From NCBI RefSeq assembly GCF_046546535.1, contig NZ_JBKGTW010000009.1, forward strand, positions 30,529 to 62,528: 32,000 bases of DNA, written 5' to 3'. The notes under the pieces were generated by a model that saw nothing but the letters and a program-made list of their open reading frames with translations, made no database searches and was not told where the DNA came from. A program made the translations under genes and the position numbers. Position 1 is the stretch's first letter; each line of letters begins with the position of its first letter. Below are positions 19,736 to 20,786 of this stretch, piece after piece. Source of the DNA: Neisseria sp. WLZKY-1 (GTDB lineage Bacteria; Pseudomonadota; Gammaproteobacteria; Burkholderiales; Neisseriaceae).

Positions 19736-19849
19736 AGCATCACAGGCAAAAGGGGAGGGCGGTTTTTCACGGTTTATTTCAAACTGGGATGGAGTTTGAA
19801 AAAACCGCGAACAAACCGCCCACGTTATTCCCCTTTTGCCTGCGATGCT
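19736..19849. repeat. ~114-nt imperfect hairpin, copy A (conserved 65-nt core 19757..19821)
   Basis: The structure has an outer stem agcatcacaggcaaaagggga / tccccttttgcctgcgatgct. The inner stem is gggcggtttttcacggtttatttcaaact / agtttgaaaaaaccgcgaacaaaccgccc, and the loop is gggatgg. Confidence 0.8.
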
Positions 19850-19904
19850 CCCACCCTTTTGAGTCCGGGGAATCCGGCAGAGGGTACAGAAGCGACCCGT
19901 TTCG

Positions 19905-20197
19905 TTACAAGTCCGCCTTGTGGGTGGGCATGGCCGCTGTCAGTCCGGTTATCGCAGGCGTTCATATGGGGTTCCGTGATTAAAAAACCGCGCGGCCAAA
20001 AGCGCAAGGGGTATTCATAACGAAATGTAAACGGCCATGAAAAAGAAATAGTCTTTTTCATGGCCGTTTACATTTCGCTACAAACCTTCCCCTTGCGCTT
20101 TTGGCCGCGCGGTTTTTTCAACACTGCACCCCATACGAACTGCGATAACCGGACTGACAGCTTAGAAACCATGCCCACCCACAAGGCGGACTTGCAA
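19905..20197. repeat. ~293-nt near-perfect palindrome (centre near 20049)
   Basis: Perfect arm blocks of 25, 30, 21 and 23 bp are separated by small internal loops. One example is cgaaatgtaaacggccatgaaaaag/ctttttcatggccgtttacatttcg. Confidence 0.85.
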
Positions 20198-20288
20198 CTT
20201 CACTAGCGATCTTTCCCCTCCGCCAGCTCCTCCCGTCCTGAGCAGTGGACGCACGTTCTTTTATTAACCATCCTTTAAGGAGTCCACC

Positions 20289-20630
20289 ATGTATTACTAT
20301 TTTAACAAAGAAACAAACGAAATCAACGAAGTTGACAGAAAATATTTAACAATCGAGTTCATCGAGCCCTGTCTAGACAAAAATGAGTGCTATGGCCCTT
20401 CATTTTGGTATGACGATGAAACAGGATACATCATGAGAATTACAGAAAGCGGAGAGCGGGAACGGCTCTATAACCGGCCTTTCTGCAAAACCGAAGCAGA
20501 AATAGAGTTAGAACAAATCGCTTTGTTCTACATTGAGAAAAACAAGATACCCATCTTCCGAACTTACTCGGAAGCCGTAGATTTCGCACTACGACACATG
20601 CGCGACAAGCTAGCTTGGCTAGCTAGTTAA
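20289..20630 (+). CDS. Hypothetical protein (orphan prophage gene)
   Basis: The 113-aa ORF has a strong SD (ttaaggagtccaccATG) and AT-rich phage-like codon usage. I recognise no family. Confidence 0.7.
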   Translation: MYYYFNKETNEINEVDRKYLTIEFIEPCLDKNECYGPSFWYDDETGYIMRITESGERERLYNRPFCKTEAEIELEQIALFYIEKNKIPIFRTYSEAVDFALRHMRDKLAWLAS

Positions 20631-20664
20631 GGTCTAGCCGCCTGAAAGTTCAGGCGGCCAGACC
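20631..20664. other. 16-bp-stem hairpin made of an inverted pair of one-mismatch DUS-like 10-mers (GCCGCCTGAA)
   Basis: The sequence ggtctagccgcctgaa-agt-ttcaggcggccagacc lies immediately after the 113-aa ORF. Confidence 0.65.
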
Positions 20665-20674
20665 GTCCCACCCT

Positions 20675-20786
20675 ACGACATGGCCGAAAGGGTAGGGCGG
20701 TTTGTTCACGGTTTATTTCAAACTGGGATGGAGTTTGAAAAAACCGCGAACAAACCGCCCACTTTTTGCCTTTCGGCCTATGACGT
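20675..20786. repeat. ~112-nt imperfect hairpin, copy B (conserved core 20695..20761)
   Basis: The core differs from copy A by a single-nt indel. The outer stem has a different sequence (ggccgaaagg/cctttcggcc) but still pairs. It lies just downstream of the Zot-like gene. Confidence 0.8.

Follow-up and report, generated by a model that had tools for sequence, protein, structure and literature searches.

Two long hairpins in direct orientation, A and B, flank an orphan gene in a 32,000-nucleotide (nt) stretch of DNA from Neisseria sp. WLZKY-1 (contig NZ_JBKGTW010000009.1, positions 30,529 to 62,528; the whole of this stretch is called the window). Both lie inside a filamentous (inovirus) prophage. 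The two hairpins are the resident hp2 (A) and hp1 (B) copies of a conserved stem-loop module, which probably serves as a cis-acting signal of the single-stranded DNA (ssDNA) genome of the inovirus. The more general statement that the module is a cis element of the phage (+) strand is very likely. As a probable intergenic signal of ssDNA phages, the module is unusual in its anatomy and in the cargo hot spot beside it, and it is more general than the sequence-only reading of the same DNA had held, which saw a cassette-like organisation reminiscent of integron attC cassettes or IS200/IS605-type elements.

Hairpin A (19736-19849) and hairpin B (20675-20786) are each approximately 115 nt long, with a start-to-start distance of 939 nt. 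An exact 56-nt match (19766-19821 = 20705-20760), for which the expectation in shuffled sequences is 0, widens to a common block of 84 nt with 87% identity, and the cores of A and B differ by a 1-nt indel (TTTTT vs TTTGTT). The inner stem is formed by 29-nt arms closed by a 7-nt loop, GGGATGG. The outer stem of hairpin A possesses 21-nt arms with 95% complementarity; the outer stems of A and B are unrelated in sequence, and both are paired. As ssDNA, A and B fold with energies of -46.0 and -44.2 kcal/mol on the plus strand, and -50.5 and -46.0 kcal/mol on the minus strand. These energies correspond to z-scores of -10 to -12, and on either strand none of 200 shuffled sequences reaches them. The exact core match and the folding thus confirm both hairpins of the earlier reading, and its near-identical core with one inserted base, its core stem of about 29 base pairs (bp), and its unrelated yet paired outer stems are likewise borne out.

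CCCACCC stands at either side of both hairpins (19727, 19850, 20667, and 20789), and seven of the 10 copies of this heptamer in the window are located within 19660-20795. On the minus strand, the complete unit of hairpin A (19727..19856; covariance-model score 89.8 bits) is arranged as GGGTGGG, a 21-bp outer stem, an 8-nt one-sided bulge, a 29-bp inner stem, a 7-nt loop, and GGGTGGG. The unit of hairpin B (20667..20795, minus strand; 102.2 bits) has an empty cargo slot on its zot side. Its CCCACCC flank ends 15 nt from the zot gene (Pfam Zot, E 2.6e-37), in agreement with the earlier placement of this hairpin directly beside a Zot-like gene. The core occurs twice in the 32 kb, both times inside the prophage, and is absent from the 24 kb of the window that are host DNA.

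The same module is present in related phages, whose loci or contigs are given L-numbers here. The loci L008-L024, which were picked by Zot alone and blind to the hairpin motif, contain a hairpin bracketed by two GGGTGGG copies. In the nearer relatives (Zot identity 51-85%), the coding strand downstream of zot reads GGGTGGG, approximately 130 nt, and GGGTGGG, and CCCACCC is found on this strand once only, in L016. Every GGGTGGG-bounded interval in these relatives is a long hairpin with unpaired flanks. The aligned units contain a homologous inner stem, in which TTTGTT...TTTTT is paired with AAAAA...AACAAA, a one-sided bulge of 7-8 nt, and, in most cases, the loop C(C/A)ATCCC. Across 18 units from related phages, 98.7% of the inner-stem cells are paired, and compensatory changes with both sides altered exist in 10 of the 21 inner-stem pairs; when the partners are slid by 1-3 columns as a control, at most 65% of the cells are paired. 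Furthermore, at least seven unrelated outer-stem sequences occur, all of them paired. Between close variants of the same phage (96-98% identity), cacgg/ccgcg in the core of hairpin B has undergone compensatory changes to cccag/ctggg, and hairpin A is unchanged. Together, the pairing, the compensatory changes, the slid controls, and the paired outer stems uphold the earlier argument that structure is kept beyond sequence.

Second copies were sought with a covariance model built from the alignment of the units. In every contig that is long enough, a second copy lies 880-940 nt away in the same orientation, a rule that holds in viral contigs, further prophages, and 13 metagenome contigs. At least two copies approximately 0.9 kb apart are present, and L010 contains three. 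The second copies have the same inner core and a different outer stem, which in one lineage is an inverted DNA-uptake sequence. The position and orientation of the module, with a length range of 115-145 nt, are kept in about 30 loci; in L099, the two cores are of different types, approximately 60% alike by eye. Because second copies with different outer stems recur in all sufficiently long contigs, two copies with a common core and unrelated outer stems are the ancestral layout of the clade, not a peculiarity of the window prophage, and the exact identity of the A and B cores is lineage-specific. The search for further copies proposed with the earlier reading therefore finds them clade-wide. 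That reading had also named two observations that would speak against it, a core unique to this phage with the same gene always between its copies, and an absence of covariation in homologous phages; the clade-wide copies, the replacement of the enclosed gene, and the 10 compensatory pairs show the opposite of both.

The strand on which the module folds can be read from energies and wobble pairs. In 22 of the 26 units compared, the phage coding strand gives the better fold, and a unit forms up to nine G·T pairs on this strand vs at most two on the other. Since both the energies and the G·T asymmetry favour the phage strand, the structures are selected on the minus strand of the window. Between hairpin A and the enclosed gene, ORF113 (ORF, open reading frame), lies a giant hairpin of 370 nt (19866-20235, minus strand), which is near-perfect, with a folding energy of -171 kcal/mol and a z-score of -26; the "big palindrome" of the earlier reading had been drawn too small and is this single structure. 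The giant hairpin contains 11 G·T pairs on the phage strand vs 0 on the other, with the same bias in five relatives. Its structure, in two sequence types, is retained throughout the clade, and it may itself be a minus origin or a packaging signal. The features of an inovirus (+) strand cis signal are found in the module, namely a non-coding hairpin past the assembly genes, a fixed orientation, and folding on the coding strand, with the minus (coding) strand assumed, by analogy with the Ff phages, to be the packaged (+) strand.

A selected strand would also be expected if the hairpins acted as RNA, in the form of terminators, processing sites, or stabilisers of a phage-sense transcript, either leaving zot or between the gene ahead of hp1 (ORF113, or the unrelated orfX of other lineages) and the cargo gene. 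RNA accommodates G·U pairs readily, and the asymmetry of the wobbles agrees with a phage-sense transcript; in addition, zot and the antisense gene converge at hp1, and hairpin B and two L010 units have a T run after the inner hairpin in the + sense. However, the T run is absent from hairpin A and from the L008 and L016 types. The gathering-threshold Rfam scan of the window returned nothing, and the E-value scan returned only non-specific microRNA-precursor matches to palindromes, so no Rfam family covers the module. Moreover, hp2 and the giant hairpin show the same asymmetry, and no phage-sense gene lies upstream of either, because of which a role in ssDNA is more likely than a role in RNA, and the RNA explanation is quite improbable.

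The invariant GGGTGGG flanks are the most striking feature of the module. In the 12 hp1 units chosen by Zot, 24 of 24 flank sites are exactly GGGTGGG, and the same is true of all flanks of window-type units, with adjoining stems that are wholly different. The heptamer always belongs to the phage strand, and the minimum-energy folds leave it unpaired; L016-type hp2 carries it on the 3' side only. Beside hairpin A, a four-tract G-quadruplex (G4) motif, GGGTGGGTAAAAAAGGGTTGGG (19712..19733, minus strand), has its first half in common with the 3' flank of that hairpin. In L099, L101, and L010, the G tracts of this motif are kept and the loops vary (A6, A7, A9 or TTTAAAA; TT or AT), and in L023 and L024 a pilE-like sequence, GGGTGGTTGGGTGGG, adjoins a conserved non-coding block described below. 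G4 motifs number 27 on the phage strand vs four on the other, which is partly a coding bias of glycine-rich genes.

GGGTGGG constitutes the half-sites of the gonococcal pilE quadruplex, and the arrangement G3-T-G3...G3-T-G3 tolerates long central loops. As far as sequence can indicate, the pattern for a G-quadruplex is present, with GGGTGGG on both sides of each unit and the canonical motif at 19712-19733. The two halves might meet at the foot of the hairpin as a quadruplex-duplex hybrid in ssDNA, with the hairpin as the long central loop. Such a hybrid would mark a site for priming, for the phage ssDNA-binding protein or another protein, or for recombination in the manner of the N. gonorrhoeae pilE G4. 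The constancy of the flanks beside unrelated stems, their confinement to the phage strand in unpaired form, the adjacent four-tract motif with kept tracts and variable loops, the pilE-like sequence of L023 and L024, and the known tolerance for long central loops are all consistent with it. However, the strict T and the exact seven bases fit recognition by a protein equally well, the one-sided motif of L016-type hp2 and the contribution of glycine-rich genes to the G4 excess speak against it, and the literature search found nothing on GGGTGGG or on quadruplexes in filamentous phages or inoviruses. Recognition of the heptamer by a protein and a quadruplex are equally possible readings of the motif, and the hybrid as such is unlikely. 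As a separate observation, a canonical G4 motif, GGGCGGGGGTGGGG...GGG(TGGG), exists within the 3' end of zot, 60-80 nt before the stop codon (L016 6021-6051, and equivalents in L011-L022 and L099), which places it at the other edge of the cargo slot.

ORF113 (20289..20630, plus strand) is an orphan cargo gene antisense to the phage genes, with the ribosome-binding site AAGGAG at 20277-20282. A ratio of non-synonymous to synonymous substitution rates (dN/dS) of 0.13 against a 56%-identical homologue indicates a real gene. Its family has one other representative only among 1.84 billion proteins; no Pfam or PHROG family was assigned, two large protein searches gave its own small family only, and the profile comparison with orfX was negative. 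The AlphaFold single-sequence model has a pLDDT of 44. The earlier reading regarded ORF113 as the only strongly translated plus-strand gene of the region; it is not the sole plausible one, for two small paralogous membrane-protein ORFs of 70 and 68 amino acids (19014-19226 and 19231-19437, plus strand) are situated beside the left attachment site attL, antisense to the structural genes. Their C-termini are 76% identical with near-identical tails (TLEAL.KIAKQ), they have a weak PHROG membrane-protein match, and homologues are present in L010, L099, and L101.

Around the hairpins, genes are exchanged extensively. The slot between hp1 and hp2 always contains an antisense gene preceded by the giant hairpin, which is ORF113/ORF110 in the window and L010, and the unrelated family orfX in other lineages. 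L099 carries the hairpin A type and the giant hairpin of the window, but orfX in place of ORF113 and another hp1 type. Its homology with the window ends 7 nt before the ATG of ORF113 and restarts inside zot, and the swapped block comprises the ORF, the terminator, hp1, and the last ~98 zot codons. No gene occupies the hp1-zot slot of the window or of 13 loci; in other loci the slot contains one of nine unrelated ORF families, which start 13-35 nt (mostly 22) past CCCACCC. The leaders of five of these nine cargo families are nearly the same, namely aata[g/t]taaacaggagtttagaa or sequences very similar to it. The cargo modules share 3' tails, and stacking without a hairpin is possible, as in ORF118 and ORF129. 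L010 is arranged as hairpin-ORF-hairpin-ORF-hairpin, with the extra hairpin and ORF74 bounded by CCCACCC. In L101 (7949-8017), the left half of a window-type hairpin (outer arm and GGGCGGTTTTT) is joined to unrelated DNA and is a recombination scar inside the core. The cargo ORFs, orfX, ORF113, and a helix-turn-helix gene are antisense, and for all cargo genes seen but one, the packaged strand serves as template. In total, at least 11 unrelated orphan gene families are exchanged at the element. Between lineages, zot is a chimera as well, with the final ~100 codons moving together with hp1 and the neighbouring cargo gene (window 20810-21104; L008, L099, and L016), and the zot of L008 is window-like in its N-terminal part and L016-like in its C-terminal part (87% at the nucleotide level).

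Such turnover could indicate that the units are single-strand-specific or site-specific recombination sites, at which Rep_trans or a host enzyme cuts GGGTGGG beside the hairpin and hairpin-plus-ORF cassettes move, working like the ends of attC cassettes or IS200/IS605 without being either. The extra module of L010 (hairpin b, ORF74, and terminator) is indeed bounded by direct repeats of CCCACCC, and in L014, L015, L008, and L009 the homology with L016 restarts exactly at the first G of the 5' GGGTGGG of hp1. The direct orientation of the hairpins, the one-way cargo ORFs without a recognisable promoter of their own, and the half hairpin of L101, broken inside the core, would also fit. However, no recombinase but Rep is available, the limits of the ORF113/orfX swap are the start codon and mid-zot instead of the hairpins, and ORF118 and ORF129 stack without a hairpin, sharing leaders and tails as in ordinary homologous exchange. 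Breakpoints at the edge of any selected conserved element are expected anyway, and the 0.95-kb contigs are repeat-bounded assembly units, not circles. The exchange junctions are of several kinds, as expected from exchange via conserved flanking sequence, and unit-edge breakpoints are also what selection for an intact element leaves. The recombination-site explanation is distinctly unlikely.

The cassette-like organisation of the earlier reading is therefore retained in one part and abandoned in another. The check proposed on the enclosed gene, which is replaced by orfX in L099, the third unit of L010, and the nine slot families provide comparative gene turnover, and kinship with attC or IS200/IS605 is not supported. 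The hairpins are kept with or without cargo, and the ORF113 swap bounded by start codon and mid-zot does not fit hairpins as cassette ends. Against integron attC stand the direct-repeat flanks, the conserved inner stem, and the lack of an integrase; against IS200/IS605 stand the lack of a Y1/HUH transposase or TnpB and a core of which no scattered copies occur in the window's host DNA. The search for integrase, Y1, HUH, and TnpB genes found none in Pfam scans of 30 window ORFs, and none are recorded in the related phage loci. The flank-plus-core pattern, searched in 185,579 species genomes, gave 13 chance matches in unrelated taxa and 0 in Neisseriaceae.

Several other candidates were considered and rejected. 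For an attC site, the inverse core sites (RYYYAAC/GTTRRRY) are absent, the nearest GTT being the GTTACCC after hairpin B, which does not continue as RRR, and no IntI was found. For a CTX-type folded attP, the hairpins lack dif-like arms, and the only dif-like sites of the window are at the prophage ends. Had a palindromic mobile element produced a target-site duplication, its terminal repeats would be the outer stems, yet these differ between the copies. In hybrid sites of the attL/attR type, recombinant halves would be expected; the outer arms of each unit are complementary to each other. Minicircles had been considered for the 937-1014 bp contigs with ORF113, which are linear fragments or unitigs ending k-1 bases into a repeat; the ends of L006 reach 30 nt into each repeat, the length expected for k=31.

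In the preferred reading, a cis-acting signal of the ssDNA genome, hairpin B is hp1 beside zot and hairpin A is hp2 beside an origin-like conserved block, both in the structured, non-structural part of the phage. The module would fold on the packaged (+) strand with GGGTGGG on each side, a free outer stem, a 7-8-nt bulge, and a T-tract/A-tract inner stem. Host machinery would start complementary-strand synthesis at the module, and the same start would give transcription of the antisense genes, templated by the incoming strand. The two copies bracket the only dispensable region of the phage. There, hp1 and the 22-nt leader stay in place as a platform, and the ORFs exchanged behind it lack any recognisable promoter of their own; the conserved cores, leaders, and tails would supply the homology.

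Provided that the module is a (+) strand cis element, complementary-strand priming or an ssDNA promoter can be put forward tentatively as its role, and a packaging signal is rather unlikely and the second choice; the split between priming, packaging, and other roles is a matter of judgement. Priming with antisense transcription is favoured because the packaged strand templates nearly all cargo genes and because a plasmid precedent exists (PMC11541004), in which Frpo/ssi hairpins act as promoters on the incoming ssDNA, both for early genes and for primer RNA. As for packaging, a 2023 preprint on Xanthomonas phages describes the packaging signals of integrative filamentous phages as largely unknown. 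In an extended form, the units would be quadruplex-capped single-strand promoters and primers, which recruit host machinery on entry of the (+) strand and express the antisense cargo, perhaps anti-defence or exclusion genes, ahead of complementary-strand synthesis, for which the same RNA would act as primer; the G-rich flanks would double as hot spots of cargo exchange. This extended form is improbable as a whole.

Several points weigh against the reading of the hairpins as priming or packaging signals. The identity of the virion strand with the coding strand is an assumption from the Ff analogy, and the G·T asymmetry would also be compatible with phage-sense RNA. The part of minus origin or packaging signal could just as well fall to the giant hairpin, leaving hp1 and hp2 another role. 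Furthermore, hp1 is kept in many phages with nothing behind it. In Ff, the packaging signal and the minus origin are different hairpins, unlike one signal present twice 0.9 kb apart. No sigma-70 -35/-10 pair was found in the hairpins by consensus scans or in a virtual duplex inspected by eye, in which TTGAAA is present with no -10 at 16-18 nt, and none was found in the giant hairpin. A classical Frpo-type promoter with -35 and -10 elements was accordingly rejected as unsupported by the sequence.

On the phage strand, a conserved non-coding block adjoins hairpin A (19440..19666, minus strand; GGGTGGG-N14-GGAGGGCGCAG...TTAGGGATTAG) and contains a hairpin (inverted repeat) at 19541-19607. Its motifs occupy an equal position in the L010, L016-type, L020, and L023 loci, and the block is a candidate (+) origin region. 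The earlier reading had offered duplicated origins or terminators as a less exotic alternative, which comes closer to the best explanation in that it invokes replication-type signals of an ssDNA phage; it does not stand as the (+) origin itself. Rep_trans initiators of the pT181 type nick in the loop of a hairpin, and hp2 adjoins the conserved block; duplicated (+) strand origins or terminators for Rep_trans, nicked in the loop of an extruded hairpin, would be in line with both. However, two to three functional copies in direct orientation would split the genome in each round, yet the layout is stable across the clade, and nicking and rejoining in the loop would give chimeric outer stems, of which none were seen. 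In addition, the rep region of L099 is ~91% DNA-identical to that of the window, but the hp2 loop and apical stem differ (CAATACTA vs CCATCCC). Such origins are very improbable.

Two smaller hairpins complete this part of the phage. One, of 18 bp, lies between G-tract motifs (19668..19709, minus strand) and has equivalents in L010, L099, and L101. The other is formed 3' of ORF113 by the inverted repeat GCCGCCTGAA / TTCAGGCGGC (20631..20664, plus strand) and is a terminator-type hairpin resembling a DNA-uptake sequence. Variants of this sequence recur in phage structures: the inverted GCCGCCTGAA pair is the ORF113 terminator (20631-20664), and an inverted GCCGTCTGAA pair is the outer stem of hp2 in the L016 lineage (L016 7878-8026), with GCCGTCTGAA also present in the host flank at 18822.

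The prophage is an island of 7.6 kb with 43% GC inside DNA of 63% GC. The window contains two dif-like sites only, ATTTCGCATAAATTATATTATGTGAAAA (18898) and ATTTCGCATAAATTATATTATGTTAAAT (26484), which are located at the prophage ends. The left junction, attL (18898..18925, plus strand), is a dif-like ATTTCGCATAA-ATTATA-TTATGTGAAAA with a phage-derived XerD-side arm, and the right junction, attR (26484..26511, plus strand), is the dif site ATTTCGCATAA-ATTATA-TTATGTTAAAT. In Neisseria sp. KEM232 (CP022527.1), the dif site is empty, ATTTCGCATAATTGATATTATGTTAAAT, and the chromosome has the order ubiE, single dif, glnD; the host proteins of the window match oral Neisseria near Neisseria sp. KEM232 / oral taxon 020. 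In view of the inovirus genes, the dif ends, and the empty site in KEM232, the island is a filamentous prophage put into dif by host XerCD. It has the properties of an IMEX (a mobile, integrative element that exploits Xer), namely a dif-bounded insertion, an empty dif in a relative, and no integrase of its own. L099 and L101 are likewise bounded by dif-like sites, at another locus. The central region reads ATTATA at both junctions (18898-18925 and 26484-26511; L219 10838-10865) vs TTGATA in the empty dif of KEM232; it seems to be phage-derived on both sides, which would bear on the order of strand exchange, and a simple strain difference is also possible.

The phage genes from Rep_trans to Zot are all on the minus strand. 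They are zot/pI (20810-21979), DUF2523 (pVI-like by domain scan, 21988-22272), a pIII-like gene (22272-23534), small coat-type ORFs (23698-24463; Phage_Coat_B was found on the homologous 66-amino-acid ORF of L099), a 97-amino-acid ORF (24468-24761), and the Rep_trans initiator (24813-26186). The nearest GenBank phages are uncultured human inoviruses with a Zot identity of ~50%; blastn of 19500-21000 against GenBank phages and a search of IMG/VR with the exact apical 23-mer gave no match, and no paper on dif-integrating Neisseria phages was among the literature matches listed. The pIII-like gene contains tandem 24-nt repeats at ~22954-23075, and L002 matches fall at successive 24-nt offsets. 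Just upstream of rep, homopolymeric G runs of 14 to ~30 bases ending in GGGTGGG exist in L015 (1-60), L016 (25-60), and L017 (1104-1165), which may be phase-variable tracts or assembly artefacts; in the window, C6...G8 at ~26211-26235 stands in their place. Beyond the prophage, the long minus-strand ORFs at 26501-28255 and 28259-29527 are spurious, glnD being encoded on the plus strand (26657-29245; Pfam GlnD_UR_UTase, HD, and ACT).

The inovirus clade of oral Neisseriaceae offers a well-defined, covarying cis element with natural variants. If expression from ssDNA is true, the "leading-region" logic of plasmids extends to ssDNA phages, and the quadruplex-capped units, if real, would correspond in phages to the leading-region islands that Frpo drives in conjugative plasmids; the G3TG3 flanks would give a natural quadruplex-hairpin hybrid for study. 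Otherwise, the finding is ordinary phage architecture and not a new mobile cassette system.

Among known systems, the packaging signal [A] and minus-strand origin [B],[C] of the Ff phages (f1/M13/fd) are alike in being long imperfect (+) strand hairpins past the morphogenesis genes, with a fixed orientation and a structure conserved more than the sequence. There is no sequence relation, however, and in the present phages one hairpin type occurs two to three times, split by a gene and a 370-nt hairpin, with invariant GGGTGGG flanks and a slot of variable antisense genes. The Frpo/ssi single-strand promoters of conjugative plasmids were reportedly described by Masai and Arai in 1997. Like the module, they comprise several hairpins of the entering strand upstream of genes templated by that strand, and their RNA also primes complementary-strand synthesis (PMC11541004); in contrast, no -35/-10/UP consensus was found here, and the replicon is a phage instead of a plasmid leading region. 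The ssoA/ssoU origins of rolling-circle plasmids are likewise orientation-specific ssDNA hairpins, often more than one per replicon, which are exchanged between replicons as modules, but they belong to another host group and another type of replicon, and reading the sequence revealed no resemblance, RSB/CS-6 motifs not having been searched for.

Compared with attC, the module has in common an imperfect hairpin of one strand, variable sequence with kept structure, a one-sided bulge, and adjoining ORFs in a single orientation without a recognisable promoter of their own; it differs in the direct-repeat flanks, the conserved inner stem, the lack of IntI, attI, and Pc, and the location of the hairpin before the cargo ORF and not after it. 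The ends of IS200/IS605, palindrome-associated transposable elements, and repetitive extragenic palindromes with their associated tyrosine transposases (RAYT) also have direct-orientation hairpins on both sides of a segment with a short motif beside each, and act on ssDNA. Here, by contrast, no Y1 is found, the hairpins are five times longer, the same motif stands on both sides, and no copy exists in the 24 kb of host DNA. The CTXphi-type attP(+)/IMEX phages share filamentous-phage insertion at dif by host XerCD, whereas an ordinary duplex dif-like site is used here, 0.8 kb from hairpin A, and the hairpins have no dif-like arms. Finally, compared with the pilE G4 of Neisseria gonorrhoeae (G3TG3TTG3TG3) and quadruplex-duplex hybrids, the halves in these phages are split by a 115-nt hairpin, with a putative quadruplex and a putative recombination role, but the G3TG3 half-sites, the Neisseriaceae hosts, and the position near places of sequence exchange are alike.

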